This document shows positions 1,292 to 62,970 of a DNA stretch of 64,000 nucleotides, piece after piece. The position numbers and the translations under genes were made by a program. How positions within the stretch are numbered: position 1 is the stretch's first letter; each line of letters begins with the position of its first letter. Under the pieces are notes generated by a model. It saw only the letters and a list, made by a program, of their open reading frames with translations. It searched no databases and had not been told where the DNA came from. The DNA comes from Opitutales bacterium (lineage in GTDB: Bacteria > Verrucomicrobiota > Verrucomicrobiia > Opitutales > PNEW01), in the NCBI GenBank assembly GCA_965197745.1, contig CBDANS010000007.1, positions 1,052,306 through 1,116,305 of the forward strand. The letters run 5' to 3'.

Positions 1292-1558
1292 TCACCCCTT
1301 TTTTGACCGCGTTTCTTCCATTACCTGACTCTTGAGCATTTGATCAGCAAGCAACTTCTTCAGCGCGGTGTTTTCTTTTCCCAACTCCTTAAATCGCTTC
1401 GCATCGGCCAGTTCTAAATTGCCATACTTTTTACCCCAGCGATAGAAAGTCAGTTCACTTACGTTGTTGCTACGGCAGATTTCCTGAACCTTTTTACCGG
1501 TAACGGCTTGCCGCAGTATTGCGATGATCTGTTCTGTTGTGTATCTTTTTCTTTTCAT
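1292..1558 (-). CDS. IS3 transposase OrfA (HTH)
   Basis: Sequence MKRKRYTTEQIIAILRQ...ELTFYRWGKKYG...LKKLLADQ. The start was moved to the internal Met at 1558. Confidence 0.7.
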   Translation of the reverse strand: MKRKRYTTEQIIAILRQAVTGKKVQEICRSNNVSELTFYRWGKKYGNLELADAKRFKELGKENTALKKLLADQMLKSQVMEETRSKKG

Positions 1559-1699
1559 TAAGCTTATCCGTTTATCCCCATAACCTCTCTCTGTTAATGA
1601 TTCGATTTTTTGGGTCACTCCACCTACATGCACACCTTTTCCAACTGAGCAGTCGAGAATTGGAGGCTGAGAGGAGAGATTGCCAAGGCCGTCCGGCAA

Positions 1700-2391: not shown

Positions 2392-4776
2392 ATGCTTCGA
2401 AAGCTCATATTTTTTGCGGTGACTGCTATAATGTTAAGCAGTTTCCAATTTCTTTACGCACATAATGTGTCTTTTCCTTTACCCAGTGATAAGATCAATG
2501 AATACCCTTTTAACATGGTGGGAAAAGTTTCCTCGAGAGATTTCGTTGGTTCTGGCACAGCAATATCACAAAAGGTTGTTCTCTCCGCAGCACATGTTTT
2601 TTTTGATATTGAGAATCTAGATTGGCATCCAAGCCCTTTTAGGTGGAACTTACGCCATTCTCCATCCGATCGAATTTTTGATATAAGTGCGCGATCTTAC
2701 AATCATTTTAGCGACTTTGCTTTAGCCACACGCCGTTTTCAACCTGATGATCCGGCTTTCAACTCATATGAACAATTTAATCGCGATGTCATTACTCTTA
2801 TATTTTATGAAGATGTAGCTAATGGAGGCCATGCAGGACGGGGTAGCAACCGAATCACCGATAACTCTGATAAAATGATCGTCGGATATCCTAACCTGAA
2901 CTACCCCGATTATGATCAGAGAAGAGACACAATGCATTCGACTAGTCTTGATGGGAGTCCTGCCAAATATGAACTGATAGACTACTATGACCGACAGGGT
3001 TCTATAAGTCGACTTTATGAAACTTACGATTTGTCTACAGGTCCAGGTAATAGTGGGGGTCCGGTATACGGGTTAATTAGATTTGCGAATGGTACTGTTG
3101 ATTGGGGTGTAGTGGGTATAACTGTTGGTGGCCGTACAGGCGAGTCTTCCGTGGCGGTAGGTATTGACCAAGCTATTTCTGATTTAATCAAAGAGGCGGA
3201 ATCCACTTTTGATACTATCTCATCCGACGACCATGGATATACTCGCAGCACAGCGACCACGGTAGAACTTAATCGCTCTATTGCGGGCAACTTAGATACA
3301 GTTGGTGATATTGATTATTTTCGTTTTGTAATAAAGAGCGATGGAACGATAAATGCATATACAACAGGTGATACCGATACCCTTGGAACATTACAGAATA
3401 ATTCAGGAAACGTTATTACGACAAAAGACGGTAGTGGTTCAGGGGAGAATTTTTTAATTACACGGGTACTCAATCCGGGAACATATTACATCGCCGTCAG
3501 CAATTTCTCTTTTGAAAAAACAGGTAGATATTCTTTTCGCGTTGATTTTACTGAGACCATTAAATTACCAGACTTAGCGGTTGATTTTATTAGCGTAGAC
3601 AGAAGGTCAGTAGTAGCAGGTGAATCGGTTCGTGTTGGTTTCAATAGAAGTAACACGGGGGATAAAAATTCTGGTATATTCGCTCATGGGATCTATTTAT
3701 CGGGGGATAAAATTATTACAACCAGAGATACACGATTGTTAAATTTGAAAAATATAAGTATGAATGTGGGTGCTTCAGGAAGAATCTCTTTTAAAGTAAT
3801 TATACCAACGAATACAATTCCGGGTATTTATTACCTAAGTTATATTCTCGACTCTGATATGAAGATTAAAGAAACCGATGAGACTAACAACACAGGTTAT
3901 GCTGAAATTACGGTATCGGAACCTATTTCAGACGATGATGGAGACTTAGTGCTTGGTGGCTTTGGTGATATAGCTGGAAAGGATATTCAGCACCCTAATG
4001 GAAACGTCTTTGACCAAATTTTGCTCACTGGACCATTCATAAAGCTCAAGGCGAAGCCAGGTCAGATCACGAGGGCATCGTTTATGGATGAAAACGAAGA
4101 CATTGTCCAGGTAGAGTTCTCAGGCAGCGGTACCTTTACCGTGACATTAGACCCGACCACTTTTTTACCTCCCGCTTTACCCCCACGCTATAACCAGCAG
4201 GTGGAGTACGTCACCGGCAAGCCCAGCGTGGTGATCGAAGGAGCAGACTCCTCGACCTTCTTCAGTATCTTCACGGTGGGATCGATCAACGCGGTGAACC
4301 AGACGTTGTTCCCCGAGGGACAGGTCTATGATGCGCAAGCGGATGTGACTCTGGTGGAGGTAATTAACTCCACGGGTACCGGAGGGATGCAGTTGTCGAA
4401 CACGGTGTTCAGTGGAAGCACGGGCAACGTCGGGGTGATTGCAAGAGTGGTGCCGATTGCAGTACGCTTAACAGTTGGTGATATCGATGCTGATGGCGAT
4501 GCAGTGCCGCACCTCTTGTTCGGAGAAGGTTCGTTCACGGTGCCATCTGGCAATCCCGGGTTGCGCATCACCGGTGGAGACTTGAAGCAAACAAACAGTG
4601 CTTCAATCGTGATCGCGGAGAGCAGATCGACAACTCCCGGGTTTGAGATCCTGATCTCTCAGAATAACTTCAAGTCCGATGGAATCCCTCAGCCCGCTCA
4701 AAGTATAGATGCTACCTTTGTAAACGAGGACGGAACTGTGATCCCCGTAACTGTGGATAATTTAACAATCGAATAA
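2392..4776 (+). CDS. Secreted multidomain trypsin-like (S1/V8-type) serine protease with PPC-like, CARDB-like and a shared 276-aa C-terminal domain
   Basis: Signal peptide present. His motif SAAHV and Ser motif GPGNSGGPVYG. DIDYFRF...GTYYIAVS (pre-peptidase C-terminal type). PDLAV...ETDETNNTG (CARDB-like). The C-terminus is about 80% identical to that of 60004..61980. Confidence 0.8.
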   Translation: MLRKLIFFAVTAIMLSSFQFLYAHNVSFPLPSDKINEYPFNMVGKVSSRDFVGSGTAISQKVVLSAAHVFFDIENLDWHPSPFRWNLRHSPSDRIFDISARSYNHFSDFALATRRFQPDDPAFNSYEQFNRDVITLIFYEDVANGGHAGRGSNRITDNSDKMIVGYPNLNYPDYDQRRDTMHSTSLDGSPAKYELIDYYDRQGSISRLYETYDLSTGPGNSGGPVYGLIRFANGTVDWGVVGITVGGRTGESSVAVGIDQAISDLIKEAESTFDTISSDDHGYTRSTATTVELNRSIAGNLDTVGDIDYFRFVIKSDGTINAYTTGDTDTLGTLQNNSGNVITTKDGSGSGENFLITRVLNPGTYYIAVSNFSFEKTGRYSFRVDFTETIKLPDLAVDFISVDRRSVVAGESVRVGFNRSNTGDKNSGIFAHGIYLSGDKIITTRDTRLLNLKNISMNVGASGRISFKVIIPTNTIPGIYYLSYILDSDMKIKETDETNNTGYAEITVSEPISDDDGDLVLGGFGDIAGKDIQHPNGNVFDQILLTGPFIKLKAKPGQITRASFMDENEDIVQVEFSGSGTFTVTLDPTTFLPPALPPRYNQQVEYVTGKPSVVIEGADSSTFFSIFTVGSINAVNQTLFPEGQVYDAQADVTLVEVINSTGTGGMQLSNTVFSGSTGNVGVIARVVPIAVRLTVGDIDADGDAVPHLLFGEGSFTVPSGNPGLRITGGDLKQTNSASIVIAESRSTTPGFEILISQNNFKSDGIPQPAQSIDATFVNEDGTVIPVTVDNLTIE

Positions 4777-5267: not shown

Positions 5268-6123
5268 GAGAGTAACTTTATACGTGGTTCTCTGGTTGTG
5301 ACTAGTTCAAAAATCTCATATCTTAACATTAGAAGCAAGACGCACGTCGTTTGGATAGGTCCTGGACAAATGCATTTTACAGTTTCTTATGACAGATTTC
5401 TATTTCGAGACAGGGACAGGGAAATCTCGAGCTTCCTGAATCTAAGAGCGGGACAGAGGGGGGCGGTTTTTTTTGCGTTAGGTTGACGCCGTCATGATGC
5501 CTTCAATATATAAATTTATAACTTTTCTTTTGTTTGTTGTTTTGCGCGCGCAAGTTGTAAAAACAGGACTTCAATCTTATCTGTAGACACACTTAAAAAA
5601 GAGAGGGAGGATCGACACGATTCTCTCTTATCAAGCTGTCCATTAATTAATGGATATTTTAGGTTGTCCGCAATGAAGACCAACCTGTGGACACACTAAA
5701 AAAGTGATCTATCGTTTCTGGGTTGCTTGAGCAGACCGTTATTGGCGGTAGTGTGCGCGGACCAAAAGGGGATACCCTAAAAGGAGATCTTAGAAGGAGA
5801 CCCGCACAATCGTTATTATGTCCAGTTGATTTGTAAATAATTGATATTCAACATATTAAATTTATACATAAAATTCCTAACGGTCTTAGAACGACGCTAA
5901 TTAAGGGGTAAGCCCCAGTTTAAAACCCTAATTAAGCCGGGGTTGACATACTATTGTTACACGCACTGCGCCCCATAATTCAGAGTATCCCTATCAAGAA
6001 AACGTTCGCCGTCTGACATCGCCGGTGTCCGCTAATTTGGGAATAAACCAATCTGGGAGCAAATCAGGTTACAGAGGGGCGGGGGGGTGCGATCGGAAGA
6101 CCGACCCTTAGTCCATATATCGA

Positions 6124-6500
6124 TTTACTCACCGGAAAATATTTTTACAAAGGGCAAAGTTTGGGAGCAAAATAATTTAAAAAGACCCTGCTTAAATTGG
6201 CTTTTAAATGTACGATTCCCCTCCGTTATGAAACCCCCTTTCTCGAGGCTCTCAGACCCCTTCACGGGCAAATCAAATCAAGCTTCCAGGCTTCAAAAAA
6301 TCCCCTCGGACACAAACCCATTCAAGCGAGCGTACGAAAGCACGCATTATCTTTTAGAATATTTCCCCGCAGTAAAATCTGTTCCTTAAAGATATTGTCT
6401 GTGTCTGCTTGGGACAGCTCATTTCAAATATTAAAATGTCCATTGATAAAAAACATGTAGGTAACCAAATTAAATCTTGGTTGCTTTCGAGGTTTTATTA
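6124..6500 (+). ncRNA. Candidate non-coding transcription unit U1 (promoter-like TTTACT-N16-TACAAA to hairpin plus U-tract)
   Basis: Paralogous to U2. It ends in GGTAACCAA-N8-TTGGTTGC followed by TTTCGAGGTTTTATTATTA. The G-T pair in the stem only works on the + strand. ORFs here are not conserved in U2. Confidence 0.35.
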
Positions 6501-6543
6501 TTACGGTTTTAATCAGCAGATCGACCGGGGGTCCCCCAATTAA

Positions 6544-6945
6544 TTTACTCACCGTAAAATATATTTACAAAGAGGGATGTAAGGGACCCAAAAAATAAAG
6601 CCACAAGCATTAAATTGGCTCTAAAAGGTACGATCACCCTTCGTCATGATATACATTATGCCTTAAGATACAACCGCCCTTTCTCGAGGTATTCAGCCCT
6701 CTTGAAGAGCAAATCAAATTAAGCTTAGAAGCTTTAAATATTCCCCCAGCCTTGAAAACATTCAATCGAGCGTACGAAAGCACACATTTTTATAACTTAA
6801 ACTATATTCCCCAGACAATGTCACCGTACTAAAATAGTATAGAAGAGAATTTGCCTACATTGCTCGTTTATTTATAAATGCATTAACAAAAAAACATAAC
6901 GGGTAACCAAATTAAACTTTGGTTACCCCAATGTTCTTTAATATC
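6544..6945 (+). ncRNA. Candidate non-coding transcription unit U2
   Basis: Starts with the same motif TTTACTCACCGTAAAATATATTTACAAAG. Shares the internal blocks CCCTTTCTCGAGG and GAGCGTACGAAAGCAC. Ends in the hairpin GGGTAACCAA-N8-TTGGTTACCC. No ORF of 60 aa or more. Confidence 0.35.
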
Positions 6946-7085
6946 TATGTTCTTATCAACCTTGTTCTTCGTACAAGTCTGCACCCTGTGCTGGTTTTAT
7001 CACAATAAAGATGTCCAGGGTGCATGTATAAGATCGATAAGGTGTCCAGTATGCATATTTATTAAACCTGTGCATAAAACTATTT

Positions 7086-7241
7086 CTGATCGATCAGGAT
7101 TTGCATTTTGGCATCATTTTCGTGATTTTTCGTAATCCTGATCGATCAGAACTTGTGTTTTTGTGTCATTTTCGCGATTTTTCGTAATCCTGATCGATCA
7201 GAACTTGTGTTTTAGCATTATTTTTGTGATTTAGCCTTTTT
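7086..7241. repeat. 52-bp tandem repeats, each carrying the 12-bp palindrome CTGATCGATCAG (iteron-like)
   Basis: Palindromes at 7086-7097, 7138-7149 and 7190-7201, spaced exactly 52 bp. Degenerate ATTTTCGYGATTTTTCG units continue to about 7330. Confidence 0.8.
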
Positions 7242-7520
7242 CGTTTTAGCAAGACTTACGTTTCAGGGCCATTTTGTGATTTTTCATGATTCGCTTTTGC
7301 GAGATTTGCATTTTTCCCCACGCCCGCACCTCGTAAAGAGGTTAATGATGCGGCGATAGCTACAGAGCCGACGCTACTCCAGGCAAACTTACTAGCATGT
7401 TTTTATTGATGACCTAAGTAATGGTTTTACTTAAGTAGAAGATGAACCCCGACCTGAATGACCCGGGGAATCCAAAAGAGTGGAAATAGTATTTTTTTTG
7501 CATGGATCATCTTTTTAAAA

Positions 7521-7668
7521 CGACCGGTAAATATATTTACAACTCAGACCCTTATCCCTCAGACAATATTTTCGTACTTAAATACCATACAAAAGAATTT
7601 GTCCGCAATGCCCGTTAATAAAAAAGCTGATGCTTGAGGGAAGGGGGTGTTACCAAGCACCCCCTTTT
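7521..7668 (+). ncRNA. Candidate short unit U3 (promoter-like start fused to the 3' part of the U2-type unit)
   Basis: CCGGTAAATATATTTACAAC start, then a 3' part homologous to U2 (CCCTCAGACAATATTTTCGTACTTAAATA). Ends in a strong terminator. Confidence 0.3.
7642..7668 (+). terminator. Intrinsic terminator hairpin
   Basis: GGGGGTG-TTACCAAG-CACCCCC followed by TTTTT. It abuts the stop of the convergent gene 7668..8273. Confidence 0.7.
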
Positions 7669-8273
7669 TATCTTGTTTTTGGAAAGTATTCCTTTCCAGC
7701 CAACCATAAATAAGTATCAATCTCTCTAAGCGAAAAACCGGTTAGCTTATAAAACATCTGAAATTTCTTAATAACATCTGAAAATATCTTGTAAGTCTTT
7801 AATTCATATCTTTTAAACTCAGCAAATTGATACATATTTCTAAAGTGCCATAGCATTTCACTTACGTGATGATCATAAATCGAATAAACATTTGGTTTAT
7901 GATAACTGTAGTATTTTGTCGCGAAAGAATAATTATTCCGGGATTTACCACCTATCTCGACTGAAGCAATTTCGTTTATTAAATCTCCTTTCCCGCTGTT
8001 CAAGTCTTCATCTATATCTGAAACATAGATATGGTTCGATACTGAATAAATATCAAATATATTGGTTCCGGAGAGTCGGTTTAATGCTGTAGTCTTCAAT
8101 AGAACAAATCTTAAATCGTTGTTTTCTGGACATAGTTTAGTAAATAAGACTTTCAATGCATCTTCTTGATCATTGTATTGTTTCATATATCTCCATTTCT
8201 TGAGATAAGATTTAACAATTCTTTTACTTGGTTTCTCAACTGATCTTTTCATTGTTCTCCTGGTCGTGACCAT
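7668..8273 (-). CDS. Hypothetical protein (201 aa)
   Basis: Clean AT-rich ORF with no recognisable catalytic motif. Confidence 0.55.
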   Translation of the reverse strand: MVTTRRTMKRSVEKPSKRIVKSYLKKWRYMKQYNDQEDALKVLFTKLCPENNDLRFVLLKTTALNRLSGTNIFDIYSVSNHIYVSDIDEDLNSGKGDLINEIASVEIGGKSRNNYSFATKYYSYHKPNVYSIYDHHVSEMLWHFRNMYQFAEFKRYELKTYKIFSDVIKKFQMFYKLTGFSLREIDTYLWLAGKEYFPKTR

Positions 8274-8306
8274 CCAAACCTAAATGACTATGGTCGGGTG
8301 ATCGGG

Positions 8307-8881
8307 TTACGTAAACTGGTCCACCGAGAGAGTTAGTCTGGAGAGGTTAATGTTGAAGTTAAGTTGGTAGAGGAAGTCAAGGCTTGGGCGCAATGAGGGC
8401 GTAGCCCGAATGGAGCACGAGCCTTGTTTATAGGCGTCCAAAGCGAAGCGTCTCGGTGTAATGTTGCCGAGACTGCGGTGTGGGCGAACGTTGTTATAAA
8501 GCCAGCGCCAGTCTTCGATAACGACACGCGCTTCGGTCAATGTCCATAATTGCTCGCGATTTAAGCACTCCTCGCGAAACCGGGCGTGGAAGGATTCAAT
8601 GTATCCGTTGTTATTCTCGCTATCGCTCGTTGAGGTGTCGCTTCGCTCGGTAGCCAGGGACTTCCCGGTTCGATGTAGATGGTTCTGATATTCATGGCAG
8701 CAAGCCAGGTCCGCAACTGCGTTTCTATTAAATGGCTTCGCATGTCGTCGCTTCGCTCCTCGGAACCGAACCGTTGTCGCTGCGGATATATGGTGGAGGT
8801 CCCTATTGCTTGATCAGCTTCTGCATGACAGCCCGTGCGCTCTGTGCATTGATAAGACGATCGACAGGGATGAACAGGCAC
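8307..8881 (-). pseudogene. IS3 OrfB (DDE) remnants
   Basis: Fragments TEARVVIEDWRWLYNNVRPHRSLG and IYIEPGSPW lie in different frames. Confidence 0.75.
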
Positions 8882-9260
8882 TCGCGCGTATAGGTCTTCG
8901 CTTCACTTGAGTGTCGTCGCTTTCAGCTCCTCGGTACATCGAGTATCGTCAGCATCTTGAGACGGCCACCGCGGATCGTCTTATCGTGGATAAAATCCCA
9001 GCTGAAAACGTGGTCAGGATATTCGGCGGCAGTCAGCAAGCCGGTGGAGACACCCCGTCGCCGGCGTTTCGGCCTTGCGCGGGGCAATGGCCAAACCTAA
9101 CTCGCGACGCAAGCGTTGCACCAAGCGTTTACCTACCTCCCATCTTTCGTCCTTCAACAACTTCGTGATCCTGGTATAGCCCCCAGCTGGCATATTGCCG
9201 GGATAACCGCCGTATCGCCGCTTTCAGCTTCATTAACCACACGCATCAGATTGCCTCGTC

Positions 9261-9659
9261 TCATAGACATACGTGGGACGGTGGAGGAGAAAATATCGGC
9301 ACGCTCCACGCATCGAACATCGGCCCCGAGCTGCATATCTTTCCGCCACCTGAGGTTTGTGCCCAGGGCTTACTACCGAGCGTATGCGACATCTCCCATT
9401 TTTTTTCGAGGGTCTCCTGCAGGATCTCTATCCCTAGCAGCTTGTCCGCCAGCATCCGCTTTAACCGCGTGTTTTCCTTCTCCAGTTCCTTCATCCGCTT
9501 GGCCTGATTCACATCAATCATCACAAACTCCCGTTTCCAACGGTGGAAGGTCTGTTCGCTGAGGTTATTCTCACGGCACACTTCCTGGGTCGACTTGCCT
9601 CTGTCTGCTTGCCGCAATATCCGTATCTTCTCTTCGGTTGTATATCTTTTGCCTTTCAT
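9261..9659 (-). CDS. IS3 OrfA (HTH), copy 2
   Basis: MKGKRYTTEEKIRILRQADRGKSTQEVCRENNLSEQTFHRWKREF...LKRMLADKLLGIEILQETLEKK. Confidence 0.7.
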   Translation of the reverse strand: MKGKRYTTEEKIRILRQADRGKSTQEVCRENNLSEQTFHRWKREFVMIDVNQAKRMKELEKENTRLKRMLADKLLGIEILQETLEKKWEMSHTLGSKPWAQTSGGGKICSSGPMFDAWSVPIFSPPPSHVCL

Positions 9660-10031
9660 TGTCTGAGTCCTTTCCAGGTTACCCAGAATAACTTTTCAAG
9701 GGGCTCAGTTTCCGTGGTCTCGACCAACTACTACCTTCTTGAAATAGAAGCAAAGCCTCGTGGATATGAGAATACTGTAGTCCATGCTTATTCGATTCCA
9801 AAACAACAGCTTTATGAAGTTTATCAATCGCTAACAAAGCATTTTCAGCCAAAATAGTTATATCACATTCTTCTTTAGTTAATGAGGGTTTATCACAAGT
9901 TTATATTAGTGTTTCCATAGTTGTATCTTTATATAAGTCAGTGTTTATTATTATTTTTTAGTTAAGATCTAATTCTAGGAAATTCCGTTAATAAATTCAT
10001 AAACACATCATTAAGTGTCTCATGTGTCTTT

Positions 10032-11253: not shown

Positions 11254-11941
11254 CTGGACTTTTGTGGCGGGGAATCCTCTTCCAGTTTTTCGGTAATAAG
11301 CTTGATGATTTTATCACGGGAACTTTTGTCTCTCATAGAGACACGAGGGACGGCAAATAAACGATAAGTATTAACTGTCCAGTGCCAATACAGTGCCGTA
11401 TCCGAAAAACAGCTCTCAAGAGCTGCTTGCGAATGGTCTTCGTGGGGCAGCGCAGGGGCTATTTCTATATCAGGAGGTATTGCATCTTCGTTGGGATATA
11501 ATCCTGAAGGGACGATCTCGCAAATATCCGCCGTATAGTCCGCCCAATAATCTCTGTACGCCTTCTGAAATCCTCGCGGGGTATTGAGCCAGGTTGAATC
11601 AAGCTTTAAAGGGGCACGCCCTTTTTTCTTATCCTCTTTGTATTCTTCTAAAAACTCAACCTGGTCCTCTTCTATCCTCGGACCTACTACCTGACGATGT
11701 CCTTCTTTGGGCCCAAGCCCACGTGGGATTATTACTGGTTCATGCATCCAGTTCCAGGCCGCTCCCGCAAAATAATTACGGTCATCTTGAACGAACCTGA
11801 ATTTTTCCCATCTTCCCTCTTTGCCCTGAAGACTATGCTAAGCTCCTTTGTTTTTTCTTGAAACGCTTTATTGCGTCGAAGTAATTCCCATATCTTCGCC
11901 GGTATGCCGTCCTCACAGGGATTGTAGATTGATAAGCTCAT
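11067..11941 (-). pseudogene. DUF6499-like protein (WELLRRN motif), frameshifted copy; homology to the intact copy ends near 11240
   Basis: The gene is split into 11732..11941 and 11067..11747. Relative to 33766..34476 there are 2 extra nt near 11850, which breaks the frame. The N-terminal motif is IPAKIWELLRRNKAF. Confidence 0.6.
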
Positions 11942-12735
11942 GCACGCTAACGGTCTAATGGTTTAAATGTGACCACCCTTGGAATTCCATCCTTCACTCC
12001 TTGAAATGGACACAGCCCAGCGCTTCAATTGCTGGAGATGATCCCTGTTTATTTGCAATAACGTTAGCCCTCACAACTTCGCGAACGCAAGGTGCAATTT
12101 GAGATTTACCCGGTATCGTTCTCCCCGCCATGTTTGAAATTCGACTGGAAGCACGCTGGCTAATGTATCTCCCGCGACTCTCCCACTTCCTGCACCGACA
12201 GATCCTCTGGGGTGTTTCTATCCCTGTCCCTTAGCTGTCATGAGCGCTGTCCCGTGCGTGAGTTTCCCTGCCCCCGAACTGCGATGAAAAATTTCCTTGC
12301 CCACGAGGTTCCGTCCTTCCGCTCTAACTTATGCACTGGCGCAACCTTATGGCTGATTTCCCGCTCGCCCGTATCCAACACTACGACGCACGTAACAGGC
12401 TGCTTGCCATCGCGGGAATGTTTTGCTCTCTCCTTCACGATGAAAAATTATGACACAAAATCGGCGCGGTGCAAACGCAATATTTTTCAAACTGACCCAC
12501 TAACGGTAACCGTTAATCTGGCCAACCCCCTCGCTGGTGAGGCTGAAGATGTCACCCAAAGTAATCATGGAAAACTTTAAAACCCCTCTCAAATCTATAA
12601 GCGAAAATAGGATCGATAAGTTGGACTGCTGTTCGGCAATCAGGGCACAGATAGCGGTTGAAGGTTTGGAATCGAGTTGTTTTACAGCTAAATTCGCTGC
12701 TTAAGGGTATCATGAACCCGGATGGCAATACCCCA
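11942..12735. other. Conserved non-coding spacer of integrase module 1
   Basis: Long identical blocks with 34477-35177, but two non-triplet indels. Contains the palindrome TAACGGTAACCGTTA. Flanked by a 24-nt direct repeat. Confidence 0.6.
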
Positions 12736-14022
12736 TCAATCTAATGGTTTAAATGCGACAACCGATTGCTCTGCATTTGCCGGGAGAATTGAGAAATATT
12801 TTTCCCCCTCTGTTCTGCTAGCAAGACTCCGGTAATGATCAAACAGTACCTGGTCACTCGAACGATGGCCCAGCATCGCTGCTGTCTTGCTTGAATCACT
12901 GGTCAGGGCATAATAGTAGCTGCCGAAGCTGTGGCGCATCGCATTGCTGTAGTTTCCCCCCCAATGGGGAAAGCCCGCTTGTTTGGTTAACTTAGCAAAG
13001 TTTATGTATGAATTTGCGGGTGCAACTTTACCCTTTTTATTATGACATAGCTGCAACCATGCCACACAATTGTCCATAAGATCCATGACTCTTAACTGGC
13101 GCTTTTTAGCTATCTGTGGGCCAACCGTCAGTAACTTGCGCTCCAGATCAATAACCGACCAGTCAAGCCGGTAAATCTCAGTGCTCCTTAACCCTGCGAA
13201 CAGCCCTAGTGCCACCAATGGGAGCAGCCCCATATCTTCATCTGTCTTTGCCGCATGCAAAACCAAATCTTCTGCTTGAGTGACTTTGAGAATGACAGGG
13301 GGCTTCCAGTCTATTTTTGGGATTGGAATTTTCTTCACGGGGTTATCGACCCGAAATCCCTTGTTCACCGCATAGTTAAAAAAGCTGCTTAAGCATAAGC
13401 GGTAGTTTATAATGCTTCTCACAGAGAGATCGGTAAAGTTATTGAGCCACTCCTCTATTTCCGTTTGAGAAATCTCCTTGACCACTCGGCTCCCAAAGTT
13501 TCTAGAGAAGATTCCCAGCCGGGAGCGGATATCATTTATGGAGCGCGAGCGCAGATTCCGGTTTTCTTTTTCCTCAATCAATGTTGCCGTTAATTCCAGA
13601 ACCGTAATATCACCGGCAGGGGGATTCAAATGCAGCTTGGCAAACTCCGCTGCCTGCAAGAGGGTAATGTCGAAACCTTCCAGTATTTCGAATGCGTTGA
13701 AAGCGTCCTTGGACTGGTACCCGGTCAGGTTATAATGATGCTGCCCGTGTTGAAGCAATTGTTCGTGTTGTTCTTTTGCCCAGGCAAAAGCGACCTCTTT
13801 ATCCTTGAACTGTCTTCTCATTCGCTTGCCCGCGAACTTCGCGGGAATCAAAACCTGGTAGGAAAATCCGTAATCATCGCCAGCGGTTCGATTGATAACT
13901 TCCCTGATTGTGATAGCACTTTTTTTAGGGTGCTCCCAGCTATTAAGGGGACTCGATTTTTTACGTTTTCCTTTAGTTGCCTCCATCAAGCAAACTAATG
14001 CCTCAATCAGGTTTACTTGCAA
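12736..14022 (-). CDS. Tyrosine recombinase/integrase (module 1)
   Basis: 428 aa with catalytic-region motifs AGLRSTEI, MRHSFGSYY, LGHRSS and FDHYRS. About 88% identical to 35178..36464. Confidence 0.9.
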   Translation of the reverse strand: MQVNLIEALVCLMEATKGKRKKSSPLNSWEHPKKSAITIREVINRTAGDDYGFSYQVLIPAKFAGKRMRRQFKDKEVAFAWAKEQHEQLLQHGQHHYNLTGYQSKDAFNAFEILEGFDITLLQAAEFAKLHLNPPAGDITVLELTATLIEEKENRNLRSRSINDIRSRLGIFSRNFGSRVVKEISQTEIEEWLNNFTDLSVRSIINYRLCLSSFFNYAVNKGFRVDNPVKKIPIPKIDWKPPVILKVTQAEDLVLHAAKTDEDMGLLPLVALGLFAGLRSTEIYRLDWSVIDLERKLLTVGPQIAKKRQLRVMDLMDNCVAWLQLCHNKKGKVAPANSYINFAKLTKQAGFPHWGGNYSNAMRHSFGSYYYALTSDSSKTAAMLGHRSSDQVLFDHYRSLASRTEGEKYFSILPANAEQSVVAFKPLD

Positions 14023-14079: not shown

Positions 14080-15107
14080 AACGATTCGATGATCCGTTCT
14101 GCCAAGGGCTTGCTGGTTCGATATAGAGGGTATTGATTTTCATCGCAGTTAGCCAGGCTCTCAATTCACTTCCAATAAATGGCTTCGCATGTCGTCGCTT
14201 CGCTCCTCGGAACCGATCCATTGTCGCTGCGAATATATTGTGGCGGCCCATGACGGTCGAGCAGTTTTTGCATGACCCCGCGCACCTTCTGCGCATTGAT
14301 ATGGCGATCGACATGGATCACCCGACACTCGCGGGTGTACTCGTCGAGGACGGTCAGCATTTTGAGATTCCCACCGCGAGCCGTCTTATCGTGGATAAAA
14401 TCCCAGGTCCAAACAGGGTCGGGATGTTCGGCCTTGGTCGGCAGCCCGGTGGAGATACCCCGGCGCCGACCTCTTGGCTTGCGTGGGGGGATCGCCAGAC
14501 CCAGTTCACGTCGCAGACCTTGCACGAGACGTTTACCCACCTGCCAGCCTTCGTCCTTCAACAGCTTCGTGATCTTCGGATAGCCCCACCTCGCCTATTG
14601 CCGTGATAACCGCCTTACTGCCGCCTTCAGTTTCGTTAGCCAGGCATCCGGATACTTCGCCCGATACGCATAGGTGGAGCGGTGCAGGTGAAAGTATCGG
14701 CACGCTCCACGCATCGAACACTGGCCCCGGGCCACAAGTCTCTCTGCCACTTGCCGCTTGTGCCCAGGGCTTACCGTTTTTTTTCGAGGGTCTCCTGCAC
14801 AATCTCTATCCCCAGCAGCTTGTCCGCCAGCATCCGCTTTAACCGCGCGTTCTCCTTCAAAGAGTTCCTTCATCCGCTTGGCCTGGTTGACATCGATCAT
14901 TCCAAACTCACCCTTCCAGTGGAGGAAGCTCAGTTCGCTTAGGTTGTTCTCACGGCATCCTCTTCCTGGGTCGATTTGCCTCTGTCTGCTTGCCGCAATA
15001 TACGTATCTTCTCTTCGGTTGTGTATCTTTTATCTTTCATTGTCTAAGTCCTTTTTAGGTGGCCCAGACCAACTTTTCAAGTGTCACAGTTTCCGTGGTC
15101 ACGACCA
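14080..15107 (-). mobile_element. IS3-family element, copy 3, truncated by about 420 bp at its orfB end
   Basis: Homology to copy 4 begins abruptly at AACGATTCGATG (14080), next to the integrase upstream region. The intact end is ...CCGTGGTCACGACCA at 15107. Confidence 0.8.
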
Positions 15108-15372
15108 ATAATATCCCTAGAACTAATATTATATGCATACTTAGAGGTAATATATTACCGATTACTTCTTTCACTTCCATTGTAATTTTCCTTTCTGTTA
15201 TTTGTTTATCTGAATTGTGACTTTTGTATATAATTCCCTAATTTAGCTTAATTTCTCGTTCTCATTGGATCATGGTCCAAACTCAACAAATTGGTTCAAC
15301 CGGACTTGTTTGACGAATGGAAGCAAGCTTCACGTTTGGTCTGGCTGAAATCGAAAGCGGATATAGGCGGAC

Positions 15373-22723: not shown

Positions 22724-25220
22724 TCAGAATAGCTTGCGCAATGTCACGCCGAAGGTCCGTGGTTCGCCCAGGAAGGCGTTAAAGGTCTGAGTCGAGTCCG
22801 GCCCCAGTTCCCCTACCTTGTAGCGGCGCGTCAAAGGCAATTTGAATGTAGTTTTTGGCGAACAGGTTCTTGGCCCACAGCTCCAAGCTCCAATCCCCGT
22901 TGATGCTCCCTATGCCAATGCGCCCATTTACCAAGGCAAAACTATCTTGAAGTTTCTCAACATCCAAGTCTGAACCGGTGTTATAGCTACTCATGTATCG
23001 CAGATTCAGATGCAGGAAACCGAGTAAGGCCCCGTTGAGATCGCGTTCATAGGTGGCAGCACCGGTAACAGTCCATTCAGGCGCGTTGGTGAGCTGTTGT
23101 CCCGCCAAGGATGCATTGGAAATGTTCGCGCCGTACTTCGTATCGGCGTAGGTTAGACCTCCACGCACCGTCAGACCCTCTGATAGCAGGGCTGTCGTTT
23201 CCAGTTCAAGCCCCCGAGAGGTCACCTCATCCAGATTCTCGACTATAAACTGGATTCCATTGAAGGTGTTAAGCTGGAAGTCTTCGAAGTCCATGTAAAA
23301 CATCGTCGCATTGACAGTCACACGCTGGTCGAAGAGGCCAAACTTGCCGCCAACCTCGAAGGAGTCCACTGTCTCCGGCTCGAATTAGAGATCCGCGATC
23401 GAAGGAATGGCGCCCAAGAGTGGATTGGACAGACCGGAACGGTCAAGATTGAAGCCGCCTCCCTTGTAGCCGTGCGCATAGTTGGCGAAGATCAAATCGT
23501 CATCACCGAAGTTATAGGCTATACTGAAGGTGCTGGACCATTCTGTCTCCTCGCGGTCGCCAGTGTATGCACCATCATTGAACGGATTGGTAGATGGCAG
23601 ACACACAAGCCCTATAATGGTGGGTGCCATTTCCGCTGGAATTAGTCCCGAAGCGACCGCCTGTTGCACATTAGTGACGAAAGAAGGGGTACAGGCACGG
23701 TTATTGCTTAGCAAGCTTGCATCGAGATCTTTGGTCTCTTTGGTGTAGCGCAATCCCACAGTGAACTCAAAGTCATCCGCGAAGGTCAAGGTATTATGAG
23801 TGAATATGGCCGAGCTCCTCGACTGCTGAAAAAATTCGTCCTGAACTACACCGTCACCTTCCAAGAACACGGTGCCAGGCGCCAAACCCGTGAACTGAGA
23901 GTAAAAACCACTGAATGGATCTCCGGAAACAAGGCCGTTGATGTAATTCTCATAGTGGGCCCCCGTACGGATGGCGTCTCGAAAAGCAAGGTCCTCCTTA
24001 CTGTAGAAAAACCCCACCAGCCAGTCCACCATTCCGATTTCGCCCTGGGCCCGAAGTTCCTGGGTAAATGTCTCGAACCCTTGGATAAAACTATCCTCGT
24101 CTCTGTACAGAATATCCACGTTGGTAAAGTCGACATCCTGGCTACGAGCCACCTGCCAATCGCGGTAGACTGTAATTGGGGTAACCGTGGCAAACTTTGC
24201 ATCCCAGTTGATCTCAGCTGACAGTCCCCATTCTTTCACATCCTGTTGATAGCCGCGATCAGCATCGACAGCGCTCTTGCGCTCGAACGGATCGCCAAGC
24301 AGTGTGCCGCCGAGGGCCTGTATGAGGCCAAGCGTCGGTCCAGGCACCCAAGTGACAGCACCGCAACACTGTTCATTGCGGTCGGCGTAGTCGCCGATCA
24401 TGCGGACGCTGATAAAGTCGTCCGGTTCCCAAAGCAACTGGCCACGGAATAGCACACGGTCCCGATCGTTGTAATCTCGTTCCAACTCAATATCTTCCAG
24501 AAATCCGTCCCGTTCACTGAACACGGCATCAATGCGCGCTGCCAAGACGTCTTTAATTAAGCTCCCCGTAGCGCCACCTGTCACCCGAATATTGCTATAA
24601 TCGCCGTAACCGACTTCAGCGTACCCGTTGCCTTGGTACTCTGGTGCCTTGGTAATGACATTGATCAGTCCTGCCGAGGTGTTGCGCCCAAACAGGGTTC
24701 CTTGCGGGCCGCGCAGGATTTCGATGCGCTCGACCTCGCCGAGTTCGGTCAAACCGACGTTGTTGCGGTTCCGGTAGACGCCGTCGACAAAAATGCCAAC
24801 TGCGGATTCGAGGCCAGGGTTGTCGCCCGTGGTACCGACACCGCGGATGCGCGCTACTGCGCCCGCGGATTCCGACCCGGAGCTAGATAAAAACAAGCTC
24901 GGCGAGATGGCCATGAGTTCGCGGATATCCTGAACACCGGCAAACTCAATCTGTGTCTCCGAGTAGGGCGTAACGGCAATGGGCACTTCTTGGGATAAGC
25001 GTTCCCGCTTTGTGGACGTCACCACAAATTCCTCCATATCTATCACCAGGATCGATTGTTCTTCCTGTGCCTCAATCTCCTTCCCTTGTCCGTTATCTCC
25101 ATCAAGGGGCTCATGGATCCTTGCAACAAAGAAAAGGCAGATTACAAAATACCTACCCTTATTGTTAAATGTCATATATTCTTCCCTCTCGCCTGATTTG
25201 GAGCCCGCACAGAGGTCCAA
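22724..25220 (-). pseudogene. TonB-dependent receptor with an in-frame TAA and a C-terminal frameshift
   Basis: Plug motifs IEILRGPQGTLFGRN. A TAA stop sits between ...IADL and FEPETVDSFEVGGK (23370-23384). The canonical end PRTFGVTLRKLF* is in another frame and stops at 22724. Confidence 0.8.
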
Positions 25221-25376
25221 TTAGAACAGTCTACTTTTAAGTAGACTCACATATTCCAGTGGAAATCAAGCAGGATAAGTGGTCTAGTCCACAAAATTCA
25301 TAATTTTGCGATTGCCTGGGTAGTTGAATTACATTAAGATATTTTCTGTCAACAAGATATCGTATAATCTCACCAT
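25077..25376. repeat. 300-bp direct repeat, copy 1 (5' end and leader of the TonB-receptor gene)
   Basis: Nearly identical to 27051-27350. Confidence 0.9.
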
Positions 25377-25712: not shown

Positions 25713-26966
25713 CTAGAAATTGTAAATCAGGTTTAACTCGATGAAGCTGTCGCGTCGTAACTCATAGTCGAGAGCTGCTCTGTCGATACCGAGAAGAGCG
25801 ATTACCTCCAGGTGTAGAAACCACTGTTCAGAGATACGCCGGTTCAATTCGACAGCCATTACACGTGAAGTCATGTCCAAGTCTTTCAGGAAACTGGTGA
25901 GAATCTCTGTGCTTTGGGGATCGTTAAACGAAACGCGCGTGCCAAAGAATAGATCATTCTGGAAGATATTGGTCGCATTTCGGTCACGCTCATCGTAAGT
26001 CCATTCGCCGAGCAGGCTGATATCGGTAGTCGAACCCCATACGGAATAAAACGTATATTCACCGCCAAAAGCGGTAGCAACGTAATCCTCTTCCAGGCCG
26101 AGCCGGTTTCGAGTGCCGGAGCGCTGAATAGCCTCAAGCTTGAACAACCAGGAGCCGATAGTTAGCTGGGTGTCCAGCCCAAACTGGCGGATCTGCTCGT
26201 AGTGCGGAGCGAAGACCAGCGCGCCACTGCGGTCTCTGCTCGGCAGTAGTAAAGGCTCCCGGCTGGTACCATCGAATACGCTCAGACCAATATCCAAGGG
26301 TCCTAAACTGTGGCTGTAGCGGGCAGCGAGATCCAGATGCCACTTCTCGGCATCGCTCTCATAAGAGGTCTGCTCAGTGTCCACGACTAGTGGAAAGCGC
26401 AGACGGCCAAATCTGCTCGGAAAGGTGCGCGCGCGGTGGTAGGTCAGACCAAATATTTCTGCCACACCCCAATCTCCGGACCAAGTGAGATGGGCCATGG
26501 GTTGACCTAGCTTAGGTTCTTTGTATGGGTGTTCCACCAAGTCGATCTGGTTGATGATATTTACTAGGTGGCGGGATTCGGTAACTCCCCAGAATACCCG
26601 GTCAACGCCCAGGCGCAGTTCCCATTCATCATTGCCGATTTCGCCGAATAGCAAAAGGTAGGCTTCACGCAGATCGGCATGCGTGCGGTGTGGATCCCAG
26701 GCGTCGTAACGAAATAACGGCGCCAGAGTGAGGCTTCTACCCTCGACGTCCTCAAGATAGAGTTTTAGCTCCGCAACAAAACCGCTGGCATGCGAGCGCT
26801 GGTCGGAATGAGCGGCGGCTTGGGGATGCCACCGGCTTCCAACACTCAAGCGTCCAGAAAACTCGCGGTTAACGATCTCAGCACGTACTTCGACGGGTAA
26901 GACCAAGGCCAAAATCCAGACGGTGCTGAGAACCGTGCTTTGAAGAATAACACGAATCAGCATCAA
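25713..26966 (-). CDS. Putative outer-membrane beta-barrel protein
   Basis: Signal peptide, alternating beta-strand pattern and a terminal ...LIYNF. Confidence 0.55.
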   Translation of the reverse strand: MMLIRVILQSTVLSTVWILALVLPVEVRAEIVNREFSGRLSVGSRWHPQAAAHSDQRSHASGFVAELKLYLEDVEGRSLTLAPLFRYDAWDPHRTHADLREAYLLLFGEIGNDEWELRLGVDRVFWGVTESRHLVNIINQIDLVEHPYKEPKLGQPMAHLTWSGDWGVAEIFGLTYHRARTFPSRFGRLRFPLVVDTEQTSYESDAEKWHLDLAARYSHSLGPLDIGLSVFDGTSREPLLLPSRDRSGALVFAPHYEQIRQFGLDTQLTIGSWLFKLEAIQRSGTRNRLGLEEDYVATAFGGEYTFYSVWGSTTDISLLGEWTYDERDRNATNIFQNDLFFGTRVSFNDPQSTEILTSFLKDLDMTSRVMAVELNRRISEQWFLHLEVIALLGIDRAALDYELRRDSFIELNLIYNF

Positions 26967-27050: not shown

Positions 27051-27350
27051 CTCCTTCCCTTGTCCGTTCGCTCCATCAAGGGGCTCATGGATCCTTGCAA
27101 CAAAGAAGAGGCAGATTACAAAATACCTACCCCTATTGTTAAATGTCATATATTCTTCCCTCTCGCCTGATTTGGAGCCCGCACAGAGGTCCAATTAGAA
27201 CAGTCTACTTTTAAGTAGACTCACATATTCCAGTGGAAATCAAGCAGGATAAGTGGTCTAGTCCACAAAATTCATAATTTTGCGATTGCCTGGGTAGTTG
27301 AATTACATTAAGATATTTTCTGTCAACAAGATATCGTATAATTTCACCAT
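27051..27350. repeat. 300-bp direct repeat, copy 2
   Basis: Includes the orphan ORF 27012..27194, which repeats the TonB-receptor N-terminus. Confidence 0.9.
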
Positions 27351-33765: not shown

Positions 33766-34476
33766 TTAATTTTGGCTAGCATTGTATATTAGCCCCACTT
33801 TTGGTTCCGGTGAGCCCTCTTTCAGTTTTTCGGTAATAAACTCGATAACTTTATCGCGGGAACTTTTTTCTCTCAAAGAGACACGAGGGACGGCAAATAA
33901 ACGATTAGTTTTAACTGTCCAGTGCCAATACAGTGCCATATTCGAAAAGCAGCTCTCAAGAGCTGCTTGCGAATGGTCTTTGTGGGGTAGTGCAGGGGCT
34001 GTTTCTATCCCAGGGGGTATTTCATTTTCGTTGGGATATAATTCTGAAGGGACGATCTCATGGACATCCGTATAATCCGCCCATTTCGCCTTGAATGCAT
34101 TCTGGAATCCCCGGGGAGTATTGGGCCAGGTTGAATCAAGTTTTAATGGGGCACGATCTTTTCTCTTATCCTCTTCGTATGCTTCTAAAAACTCAACCTG
34201 GTCCTCTCCTATCCTCAGACCCAATCTTTGAGGCTGTCCTCTTTTGGGCCCAAGCCCACGTGGGATTATTACTGGTTCATGCATCCAGTTCCAGGCCACT
34301 CCCGCAAAATAATTATTTTCTTCTTTAACGGACAGGAATTTTTCCCTTCTTCCCTCTATGTCCTGAAAACTATTAAGCTCCTCTGACTTTTCTTTAAACG
34401 CTTTATTGCGTCGAAGCAATTCCCATACCTTTGCCGGTATGCCATGATTACAGGGATTGCAGTCTGATAAGTTCAT
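33766..34476 (-). CDS. DUF6499-like protein (WELLRRN motif), intact copy
   Basis: Start set at MNLSDCNP to match module 1. IPAKVWELLRRNKAF resembles the WEFLRRN signature of regulators found on integrative elements (from memory). Confidence 0.65.
   Translation of the reverse strand: MNLSDCNPCNHGIPAKVWELLRRNKAFKEKSEELNSFQDIEGRREKFLSVKEENNYFAGVAWNWMHEPVIIPRGLGPKRGQPQRLGLRIGEDQVEFLEAYEEDKRKDRAPLKLDSTWPNTPRGFQNAFKAKWADYTDVHEIVPSELYPNENEIPPGIETAPALPHKDHSQAALESCFSNMALYWHWTVKTNRLFAVPRVSLREKSSRDKVIEFITEKLKEGSPEPKVGLIYNASQN
33770..33790. repeat. Right arm of the perfect 21-bp inverted repeat
   Basis: It overlaps the last codons (IYNASQN*) of 33766..34476. Confidence 0.95.
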
Positions 34477-35177
34477 GCGCACTATTGCTTCTTCTAGTGG
34501 TATTAAATTTAACAAACGTTTGGACTCATCCTCCAATACTTAAAGTAGGCACTTTAGCCAGCGCTTCAATTGCTGGAGATGATTCCTGTTTATCTGCAAT
34601 AATGTTAGCCCATACAACTTAGCGATCGCAAGGTGCAATTTGAGATAACCCTGTATCGTTCTCCCCGCCATGTTAGAAATGCGACAGGAAACACGCTGGC
34701 TATTGTATCTCCCGTGACTCTCCCATTTCCTGCACCGACAGATCCTCTGGGGTGTTTCTATCCCTGTCCCTTAGCTGTCATGAGCGCTGTCCCGTGCGTG
34801 AGTTTTCCTGCCCCTGAAGCTTCGCCCTTCTGCCCGAACTTATGCACTGGCGCAACCTTATGGCTGAAATACCGCTCGCCCTTATCCAACACTACGAGGC
34901 ACTCGACAGGCTGTTTGCCATCGCGGGAACGTTTTGCTCTCTCTTTCACGACGAAAGACTATGACACAAAATCGGCACGGTGCAAACGCAATATTTTTCA
35001 AACTGACCCACTAACGGTAACCGTTAATCTGGCCACCCCCCTCGCTGCTGAGGCTGAAGATGTCACCCAAAGTAATCATGAAAAAAGGCACAGATAGCGG
35101 TTGAAGGTTTGGAATCGAGTTGTTTTACAGCTAAATTCGCTGCTTAAGGGTATCATGAACCCCGATGGCAATACCCA
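34477..35177. other. Conserved non-coding spacer of integrase module 2
   Basis: See 11942-12735. Confidence 0.6.
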
Positions 35178-42451: not shown

Positions 42452-42533
42452 TTCAACACTAGCGCAGTGCTGGTGAGTGCTGTGAAGCCGTGAAGGGGTT
42501 TTGATAGGTGGGGGTATTACCTGGATACCCCTC
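42452..42533 (+). repeat. Oriented repeat (OR) copy E, long variant
   Basis: ...GTGCTGGTGAGTGC...GGTTTTGATAGGTGGGGGTAT-TACCTGG-ATACCCC. Confidence 0.8.
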
Positions 42534-46931: not shown

Positions 46932-47000
46932 ACTTCCCTCAGGCTACAACACAGGGCATTATAGGAGACAGACGGAGGGGTTCAATAAACCTCTTACAGT

Positions 47001-47070
47001 TTAATGTTCTCGAGCGCTGAAGAGTGATGAGAGCGTTTTGATGGGCTGGGGTATACCTGGGATACCCCTT
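47001..47070 (+). repeat. OR copy A (reference full copy)
   Basis: TTCTCGAGCGCTGAAGAGTGATGAGAGCGTTTTGATGGGCTGGGGTAT-ACCTGGG-ATACCCCTT. Confidence 0.85.
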
Positions 47071-47436: not shown

Positions 47437-47564
47437 TTTGAACCCCCTTTATTGATGTTATATTGATTACCAGTCACAGTTAAATATTACCCTTTAAATG
47501 TGAAAATCAAGTAATGGGGAAAGGAATATAATTGTCACCCCCCACAAATCCCCCAAGCCCTACC

Positions 47565-59206: not shown

Positions 59207-59235
59207 CAACAGCCAACGGCGAAATCTATGCTATC

Positions 59236-62969: not shown

Positions 62970-62970
62970 C

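Follow-up and report, generated by a model that had tools for sequence, protein, structure and literature searches.

Among Gram-positive bacteria, the SLH and CWB2 systems each place one module both on the S-layer protein and on many other surface proteins. In the Cwp family of C. difficile, dozens of paralogues per genome share a CWB2 (PF04122) anchoring region of ~270 aa, the rest of each protein being a variable functional region (a protease or an adhesin), and the S-layer protein uses the same CWB2 anchor. In RsaA from Caulobacter, residues 1-249 form a Ca2+-dependent anchor to the O-antigen of lipopolysaccharide (LPS) and residues 250-1026 form the lattice (PMC6978808). Here, we analyze a 64,000-nucleotide stretch of an Opitutales genome (contig CBDANS010000007.1 of assembly GCA_965197745.1), hereafter the window, in which two secreted proteins, a 794-aa serine protease encoded at 2392-4776 on the forward strand and a 658-aa lectin-like protein encoded at 60004-61980 on the reverse strand, share a 276-aa segment. 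This segment is an autonomous folded, all-β, acidic extracellular domain of an unnamed family, and it is a candidate for an envelope anchor.

The two proteins are similar only in their last ~280 residues. BLASTP aligns residues 504-794 of the protease with residues 372-658 of the second protein (77% identity over 291 aa, E 2e-148) and finds no further similarity between them, the next-best segment having an E of 0.52. The domain copies themselves, at 3946-4773 (+; aa 519-794) and 60007-60834 (-; aa 383-658), are 79.0% identical over exactly 276 aa by tblastn and score 481 and 486, respectively, against the hidden Markov model (HMM) of the family. When the genes are aligned at the nucleotide level with 300-nt flanks, identity remains at background until the codons for LVLGG/LVLDG, then holds at ~75% up to the stop codon, and the 3' flanks are unrelated. 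The 206 nucleotide differences between the copies fall on codon positions 1, 2, and 3 in numbers of 47, 21, and 138, and the Nei-Gojobori method yields a nonsynonymous divergence (dN) of 0.13 and a synonymous divergence (dS) of 1.57. With a dN/dS of 0.083 and a saturated dS, the two copies are old and under strong purifying selection rather than the product of a recent duplication. The original prediction, made from the sequence alone, had described C-terminal domains ~80% identical in two otherwise unrelated secreted proteins, differing mostly at third codon positions, and had listed a recent whole-gene duplication as one outcome that would undo it. The identity, the third-position bias (138/206), and the restriction of the similarity to the domain in both the protein and nucleotide alignments all bear this out, as do the quoted motifs and the TIE* ending, which are present in the copies. 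Two points need refining. The N-terminal parts (N-parts) are indeed unrelated, but the 658-aa protein belongs to a very large paralogue family; and the domain, C-terminal in both window proteins, is not strictly so across the family. In the protease copy, HPNGN lies at 3991-4005, PPRYNQQVEYVTGKPSVVI at 4180-4236, and GDIDADGDAVPH at 4477-4512, and the two copies end in ...VDNLTIE and ...IDEITIE. A trivial origin of the similarity, be it recent duplication, a chimeric assembly, or coincidence in low-complexity sequence, is practically out of the question. Although the source is a metagenome assembly, in which repeats can in principle be mis-joined, such an origin is refuted by the dS of 1.6 between the window copies, by hundreds of independent sequences from many samples and sources, by the sharp in-frame boundaries, and by a confident structure prediction.

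As predicted, no named family could be assigned to the domain. Pfam and NCBIfam give nothing on it in either window protein (E ≤ 1) or in 25 distant members (E ≤ 0.01), nor do PDB sequences by phmmer or by profile (E ≤ 10), and the literature searched contained no paper describing the domain or its family. Its homologues are named "hypothetical protein" in their sources (Opitutus sp., Opitutaceae bacterium), apart from P0190, which is named after a different domain, and the sole true exception, P0194, which the JGI calls "S-layer protein." No relative of the domain was found in IMG/VR or PLSDB, and a phage or plasmid origin was rejected on these grounds. The AlphaFold model, built from a 54-sequence alignment, is all-β and of very high confidence, with a predicted local distance difference test (pLDDT) score of 94.6 and a predicted template modeling score of 0.92. 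Foldseek finds nothing significant for this model (best E 0.63 with a TM-score of 0.15 in PDB; best E 0.21 in BFVD); the weak, nonsignificant top matches are β-helix proteins and "putative adhesins," and we do not rely on them. An internal duplication was rejected as well, since hhalign of the two halves returns a probability of 2%. On the strength of this model, the fold is unrecognized and possibly new. The domain is acidic (pI 4.1-4.3; 4.25 for the protease copy) and contains neither Cys nor Trp. Its conserved polar and aromatic residues are H, D, Q, R, D, D, E, Y, Q, Y, and N. The GDIDADGDAVPH loop (4477-4512, + strand) is DxDxDG-like and conserved in the family, with GDIDASGDA in the consensus; we take it to fit the DxDxDG-type Ca2+-binding pattern, and by this motif the domain probably binds Ca2+.

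Could such a domain be an enzyme, for example a β-helix polysaccharide lyase or hydrolase targeted by carbohydrate-binding modules (CBMs) at the N terminus? An order of CBM-CBM-Ig-catalytic domain, where Ig is an immunoglobulin-like domain, is common in carbohydrate-active enzymes, the invariant acidic, His, Arg, and Tyr residues form a cluster, and the very weak top Foldseek match (E 0.63) is a pectate lyase. This match is not significant, however (TM-score 0.15), a second catalytic domain would be unexpected in proteins that already contain a complete S1 or S8 protease or are S-layer-like, and at least 45 near-identical catalytic domains in one genome would be unusual. We thus hold a catalytic role to be very improbable indeed.

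A profile search of 1.84 billion cluster representatives shows that the domain is widespread, with 785 representatives at E ≤ 1e-3, 589 of which are at E ≤ 1e-30. The passengers that accompany it are diverse: a trypsin-like protease with PPC and CARDB domains, lectin-like jelly rolls with an Ig domain, an S8 subtilase with six Ig domains, CARDB with Big_7, a DUF5122 propeller, RCC1, FG-GAP, leucine-rich repeats (LRR), RTX repeats, and proteins with RHS repeat or GH62 matches. When the position of the domain was classified in 138 (P0121-P0258) of 150 listed representatives, it was C-terminal in 57, near-C-terminal or internal in 39 (where some 13 tails that were inspected continue the divergent end of the domain), N-terminal in 24, and stand-alone in 4, with only a partial match in the remaining 14. 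Several proteins contain two copies. The stand-alone form P0089 is a 302-aa protein made of a signal peptide and the domain, single-copy and found in five contigs, each time at the same locus. Members of 302 aa also make up part of its 90%-identity cluster, on several megabase-scale contigs. The locus of this stand-alone homologue (L078) is crowded with genes for sulfatases and for the phytanoyl-CoA dioxygenase family (PhyH).

The stand-alone, N-terminal, and double forms are hard to square with a sorting signal at the C terminus and speak instead for a folded module that anchors or binds. This bears directly on the view that the domain is the secretion or outer-membrane-translocation signal of a dedicated export pathway, akin to the C-terminal domains (CTDs) of the type IX secretion system (T9SS) or to an autotransporter translocator. 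Such a signal would account for a domain that is mostly C-terminal on many different secreted proteins of a genome, that follows the Ig_7 domain accompanying CHU_C sorting domains in Bacteroidota, and that has a conserved ..TIE end in Opitutales copies. Yet in the family at large the terminal residues vary, and the variable position of the domain speaks against it too. A T9SS CTD is a β-sandwich of ~80-100 aa found strictly at the C terminus, and the domain is three times that size; Pfam and NCBIfam scans reveal no TIGR04183 or TIGR04131 (CHU_C) match on it, nor that of any other sorting model. No T9SS machinery turned up among the scanned window ORFs (open reading frames), no genome-wide search having been made, and the flanks of the 77 related loci described below contain no conserved machinery gene. 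Autotransporters are no better a match, for there is no PF03797 or Foldseek barrel match, the terminal residue is Glu, and the pI is as low as 4.1-4.3. We therefore consider an export signal very unlikely. Other known systems fare similarly. Both C termini lack the hydrophobic stretch of PEP-CTERM/exosortase substrates and show no TIGR02595-type match; SLH, CWB2, and LysM have no Pfam match on the domain, which shows no internal repeat by hhalign; residues 1-249 of RsaA have no similarity to it, by PDB profile at E ≤ 10 or Foldseek against PDB; and both window proteins have an N-terminal signal peptide and no HemolysinCabind match, unlike RTX substrates of the type I secretion system (T1SS). 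The domain does not adopt a CBM or galactose-binding-like fold either, as judged by its best Foldseek match quoted above.

The expansion of the family is most extreme among close relatives of the window. We scanned the GTDB species representatives with peptides of the window copy, a search that reaches close relatives only, so that all counts are lower bounds, and recovered 109 coding stretches. The 77 loci kept (L001 and onward) are all in two Opitutales metagenome-assembled genomes (MAGs), with at least 45 copies in OY829953.1 (4.49 Mb) and at least 32 in CBDCNV01, each 78-84% identical to the query. The original prediction had called for a survey of the genome for further carriers; these two related genomes contain many. 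Of these loci, 65 encode ~740-aa paralogues of the 658-aa window protein, consisting of a signal peptide, an LPQDLE.F.DFE motif, an N-part of ~470 aa that contains a divergent pair of lectin-like jelly rolls, an Ig domain (PF19081), and finally the domain. Signal peptides are present on the full-length copies. The sub-type lacking the Ig domain, to which the window protein belongs, recurs with the same layout in P0290-P0302 (635-651 aa). The window protein itself is 100% identical to P0287, encoded on contig ctg245869_35x_l (2.29 Mb) of ENA assembly ERZ25072076, a third assembly from which the window derives; an exact look-up of the protease retrieved nothing. The protease has an orthologue at L001, and its architecture is rarer than the lectin-like family. 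No gene is consistently found nearby: when the flanking ORFs of the 77 loci were clustered, no family was present in more than 9 loci.

Conservation in these paralogues increases toward the C terminus. Averaged over alignment columns, identity is 0.4-0.55 for the N-part, rises to ~0.75 for the Ig domain, and reaches ~0.90 for the shared domain. For random paralogue pairs, the proportions of synonymous (pS) and nonsynonymous (pN) differences are 0.76 and 0.37 in the N-part, 0.63 and 0.13 in the Ig domain, and 0.58 and 0.064 in the shared domain. Together with the dN/dS of the window copies, the pN of 0.064 versus 0.37 among the 65 paralogues substantiates the earlier claim of a selectively maintained module. 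Within each protein, no other part is as constrained as the domain, which is also what unites the largest family of secreted proteins in these genomes.

A second process contributes to this homogeneity. In 21 reciprocal-best orthologue pairs between the two MAGs, synonymous divergence is higher in the domain than in the N-part of the same protein in 17. The contrast can be striking, with pS in the N-part and the domain of 0.01 versus 0.27 for L014/L055, 0.01 versus 0.43 for L058/L075, and 0.05 versus 0.55 for L023/L020. Sliding identity between orthologues is ~100% across the N-part, but at the linker and Ig domain it falls abruptly and stays at 68-95% from there on. Conversely, 13 paralogue pairs whose N-parts are 55-60% identical at the nucleotide level share perfect tracts of 100-371 nt in the Ig or shared domain, against a median longest identical tract of 29 nt, and 9 of the 13 pairs lie within one genome. 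The cleanest single conversion event seen involves L058 and L057, 2.4 Mb apart in OY829953.1, which are 100% identical over ~1 kb, from the last part of the Ig domain through the entire shared domain to its stop codon, and which differ both upstream and downstream. The divergence pattern and the perfect tracts indicate that the 3' module has been repeatedly overwritten from other paralogues, i.e., that it is exchanged between them by gene conversion; all sequences compared are metagenome assemblies, and the block pattern is to be read with that caveat. The idea in the original prediction that the module is being shuffled between secreted proteins therefore holds in that it has many passengers and is converted among paralogues, but the protease copy shows no recent exchange with the lectin-like family. 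The nearest copy to the protease domain is that of its orthologue in L001 (pS 0.45) and the nearest nonorthologous copy is at pS 0.63, whereas the nearest relatives of the second window copy are the C-terminal domains of lectin-like paralogues (pS 0.37).

Both window genes also show a compositional step at the domain, as had been noted from the sequence. GC content rises from 0.40 to 0.51 in the protease gene and from 0.47 to 0.57 in the other gene. The step is mainly at third codon positions, where GC content (GC3) increases from 0.31 to 0.58 and from 0.44 to 0.70, respectively, a rise of 0.26-0.27 at the domain boundary in each gene, and related paralogues exhibit the same step. GC content is very uneven in the window as a whole (0.36-0.60 per kb, with an ORF GC3 of 0.30-0.70); the genome looks compositionally mosaic, and a GC step by itself is consequently a weak sign of foreign DNA. 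The multicopy domain's elevated GC3 fits GC-biased gene conversion, and the single-copy stand-alone homologue has a GC3 of 0.48. We rejected GC-biased conversion as the full cause of the step, since the protease copy is GC3-rich without recent exchange (pS 0.45 to its orthologue and at least 0.63 to the others).

An informative group of carriers has the domain at the other end. In P0194, P0251, and P0258 (~1070-1300 aa), the domain occupies residues ~28-283, and the rest of the protein is homologous to the lattice-forming C-terminal part of Caulobacter RsaA (PDB 5n8p, 6p5t, and 5n97; E 2e-41, 1e-20, and 4e-11). Residues 433-1068 of P0194 are collinear with RsaA, including its C-terminal end, and phmmer aligns only this C-terminal part of P0194; RTX repeats are present in P0194 and P0258. 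As judged from these alignments, the domain occupies the position of the RsaA anchor without being homologous to it. Giant N-terminal-type carriers resembling P0185 are also present in OY829953.1, the genome with at least 45 C-terminal copies. There, a P0185-like gene (6001-9209 of locus L084) is split into ORFs of 447 and 612 aa, the split being found at the same place in L085, from a second assembly, and two HlyD-family membrane-fusion genes lie 2-6 kb upstream. The P0185-like N terminus, MAKR..LE.LE.RQLLA, resembles Planc_extracel below threshold. A Planctomycete origin of N-terminal-type carriers was dropped, because this match is subthreshold and the motif is also found in OY829953.1 (P0420).

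These carriers, together with the conservation pattern, are relevant to whether the domain might bind itself, the domains of many paralogues and of the stand-alone protein coassembling into a lattice or fiber that displays the variable parts. Near-total conservation across the domain (~90% identity despite a pS of 0.58) is typical of extensive homotypic contacts, a stand-alone homologue is maintained as a single copy at the same locus in five contigs, and the domain is associated with RsaA-like S-layer proteins. In the latter, however, it is the part resembling the RsaA CTD that makes the lattice, and since gene conversion adds to homogeneity, conservation of the whole surface is not needed as an explanation. 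We find self-association distinctly unlikely.

The reading that we favor, and to which we would give about an even chance, is that the domain is a new envelope-anchoring module, analogous to SLH or CWB2, that tethers Sec-exported passengers to a shared surface component. The proteins would be exported through Sec by means of their classical signal peptides, after which the domain would bind noncovalently to something that the carriers share in the envelope of their own cell. The likeliest partner would be a surface glycan, for instance the LPS O-antigen, with a common surface layer as the other option. Passengers as diverse as jelly-roll pairs, S1 and S8 proteases, β-propellers, LRR, and RTX regions would in this way be held on the cell surface. 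Because all paralogues would have to fit one partner, the domain would be under very strong purifying selection, and the resulting nucleotide similarity would make it a substrate for conversion, leading to further homogenization and probably to a higher GC3. Anchoring is supported by the promiscuity of the domain combined with its terminal position, its copy number, its being under the strongest constraint, and the flexible linker that precedes it. Two analogies lend it further support: in RsaA-like proteins the domain stands in for the anchor, and in the ~740-aa paralogues it comes directly after a PF19081 Ig domain, which in Bacteroidota is the place of a sorting or anchoring domain. Moreover, the conserved polar and aromatic residues and the DxDxDG-like loop could be interpreted as a Ca2+-dependent glycan-binding site.

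Several observations weigh against anchoring. The RsaA argument is purely positional, neither sequence nor Foldseek matching the domain to RsaA's N-terminal domain. No partner gene was found, the neighbors of the 77 loci being unrelated. Finally, the stand-alone P0089 and the two-copy proteins would fit a general binding domain equally well. The last point leads to a different ligand, an external one (an algal or host polysaccharide or matrix), in which case the domain would serve all carriers as an adhesin or as the part that targets the substrate, with the other modules acting as effectors. The conserved polar and aromatic residues and the Ca2+-loop-like motif would suit a lectin, stand-alone secreted forms and double copies exist, and many sulfatase and PhyH genes lie in the genomic surroundings, a trait of marine bacteria that degrade polysaccharides. 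We nevertheless judge this unlikely. The ~740-aa paralogues already possess two divergent lectin-like domains that seemingly determine specificity, next to which a second binder, invariant across at least 45 proteins, would be less economical; in RsaA-like proteins, the domain is at the cell-proximal anchor and not in the outward-facing part; and it has no Foldseek similarity to any CBM or lectin. Anchoring to the cell's own envelope thus remains our preferred explanation.

As for the remainder of the two carriers, the protease (all features on the + strand) begins with a predicted Sec signal peptide, MLRKLIFFAVTAIMLSSFQFLYA (2392-2460), which, as read from the translation, has no lipobox Cys. 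The trypsin-like protease domain (aa 35-244; 2494-3123) is matched by PF00089 (E 0.003) and PF13365 (Trypsin_2; E 1e-4), both under the gathering score, and contains the catalytic motifs SAAHV around the His (2584-2598) and GNSGGP around the Ser (3046-3063). It is followed by a weak PPC-like (pre-peptidase C-terminal) domain (aa 307-370; 3310-3501; PF04151, E 0.0056), overlapped by a DVUA0089-family region (296-378; E 3e-4), and by a CARDB domain (aa 393-501; 3568-3894) that is above threshold (PF07705, E 4.1e-11). A short acidic linker connects CARDB to the shared domain.

The 658-aa protein (features on the - strand), which likewise has no lipobox in its translation, was identified as a lectin-like family member by comparison with its paralogues. 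It starts with a predicted Sec signal peptide, MKIKPIKIIPLLILLLYLPVCLYA (61909-61980), after which comes LPQDLE.F.DFE, the family motif conserved in the paralogues. The full-length AlphaFold2 model (pLDDT 83.8) consists of the signal helix (residues 5-23), two tandem β-sandwiches, a disordered linker, and the shared domain. The two sandwiches (aa ~30-185 and ~190-365; 60886-61893) are galactose-binding-like or CBM-like jelly rolls, and the linker before the domain (aa 369-380; pLDDT below 50) is disordered or flexible. With this full-length model, Foldseek retrieves Vip3A domains IV/V, reelin, the CBM32 of EngBF, Cry1Ac domain III, allantoicase, and the meprin MAM domain (E 1e-6 to 1e-3). Since the domain model alone matches nothing, these CBM-type matches were assigned to the N-part, which according to the model is most likely a pair of lectin-like modules. 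Five PhyH genes surround the 658-aa gene (56914-63891). An inverted repeat (59866-59883/59928-59945), formed by GGTGGAGCGGGCTGTCCC and a near-complement, lies 60-140 nt downstream of the gene; in L003, L025, and L057, the GGTGGAGCGGGCTGTCCC arm likewise lies just downstream of family genes. It is a terminator-like or repetitive extragenic palindromic (REP)-like element.

The window also contains a remnant of a third family gene (47604-47672, +), made up of its last 22 codons, which had been spotted in the original prediction, and the stop codon. It encodes DATFANEDGIDISVTVEEMVIE* and corresponds to the last 69 nt of many family genes, with blastn matching it to the 3' end of L074 at E 5.6e-11 (18/25 residues identical). 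Upstream, there are stop codons and the similarity does not continue. The domain HMM alone gives no support (i-E 1), a weak score explained by the tail being the most variable part of the domain. The exact 5' junction of the remnant is a truncated copy (47550-47607, +) of a dispersed repeat of ~61 nt (family D15, with five other copies): in the alignment, the repeat stops at ...GAGAGCGTTTTGATG and the gene tail starts there. This intergenic repeat, with the consensus ...TTCTCGAGCGCTGAAGAGYGRTGAGAGCGTTTTGATGGGCTGGGGTATA..., is found at 42461-42521, 46998-47058, 47550-47607, 50658-50718, 54728-54788, and 55544-55604, and related pieces exist in loci L032, L052, and L062. A second short repeat is located right after the stop codon of the remnant (47688-47780) and ~570 bp downstream of the 658-aa gene (59395-59438, -), as well as upstream of family genes in L020 (1402-1488) and L046 (1390-1477). 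An ORF for an IS4-type DDE transposase lies 850 bp downstream of the remnant.

Elsewhere in the window, mobile-element pieces are found at 1292-1699 (-), 8299-9738, 14092-15119, 43657-44986, and 48527-49777 (+), comprising an IS3-type OrfA (HTH_Tnp_1), three copies of a repeat resembling an insertion sequence (75-91% identity), and the IS4-family DDE transposase. Two direct repeats of ~3 kb (11260-14022 and 33800-36464; 82-94% nucleotide identity) each end in a 428-aa tyrosine recombinase (12736-14022, -, and 35178-36464, -; 89% amino acid identity), and enclose 22 kb. Within this interval, a GC-rich block (16-20 kb, 57-60% GC) encodes a histidine kinase, a TonB-dependent receptor, and an MMPL transporter. 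The repeat pair and its recombinases could be tandem integrative elements. A direct repeat of 300 nt (25077-25376 and 27051-27350; 98% identity) flanks an ORF at 25713-26966.

Verrucomicrobiota are major degraders of marine polysaccharides and frequent associates of animals, and little is known of how they retain enzymes and binding proteins on their surface. The domain is a concrete candidate for a surface anchor in this phylum, and its description would fill a gap in the databases, where 785 cluster representatives are now "hypothetical." If truly a portable anchor, it would be of practical use for surface display. In addition, the family offers a clean natural case of module-restricted gene conversion in bacteria, in which one half of the gene is identical between orthologues and the other half is scrambled; genes of this kind should therefore be avoided in phylogeny and strain typing.

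Among known systems, the T9SS CTDs (TIGR04183; CHU_C, TIGR04131) share with the domain the condition of a common C-terminal module preceded by a "CHU_C associated" Ig domain (PF19081), but the domain is three times larger, has no HMM match, and is also found N-terminally or alone. The autotransporter β-domain (PF03797) is similarly C-terminal, ~270 aa long, β-rich, and borne by secreted proteases and adhesins. In contrast to it, the domain is acidic and soluble-looking, ends in Glu rather than an aromatic residue, and shows no Pfam or barrel match. The N-terminal anchor of RsaA is acidic, of similar size, and precedes the lattice region just as the domain does in P0194, P0251, and P0258; however, most carriers have the domain at the C terminus, and are exported through Sec rather than being T1SS substrates.

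The SLH and CWB2 modules come closest. Like the domain, SLH triplets (PF00395) are a single module of ~170-280 aa present on the S-layer protein and on many unrelated surface enzymes of the same cell, either N- or C-terminal, in proteins with ordinary Sec signal peptides. They attach noncovalently to an envelope glycan, which for the domain is only proposed, by analogy. SLH differs in being a three-fold helical repeat, where the domain is a single all-β unit with no internal repeat and no sequence match to it, and since the Opitutales host has an outer membrane, a pyruvylated secondary cell-wall polymer does not readily suggest itself as the partner. CWB2 resembles the domain in that many paralogues combine a common module with a variable rest. 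It is, however, an α/β triple repeat whose Pfam model does not match the domain, which in turn has a higher copy number (at least 45) and clear interparalogue conversion confined to the anchor end. A broader proposal, possible but one that we advance tentatively and with some doubt, is that Verrucomicrobiota, and possibly a wider group, have an unrecognized display system, in which a Ca2+-dependent envelope-glycan anchor of ~29 kDa with a new fold would be carried by an S-layer-like protein and by at least 50 surface enzymes and lectins per cell, its homogeneity being actively kept by gene conversion, as a Gram-negative counterpart of SLH and CWB2. By analogy, the arrangement of the domain, N-terminal on an S-layer-like protein and C-terminal on surface enzymes and binders, is the layout of the SLH and CWB2 systems.

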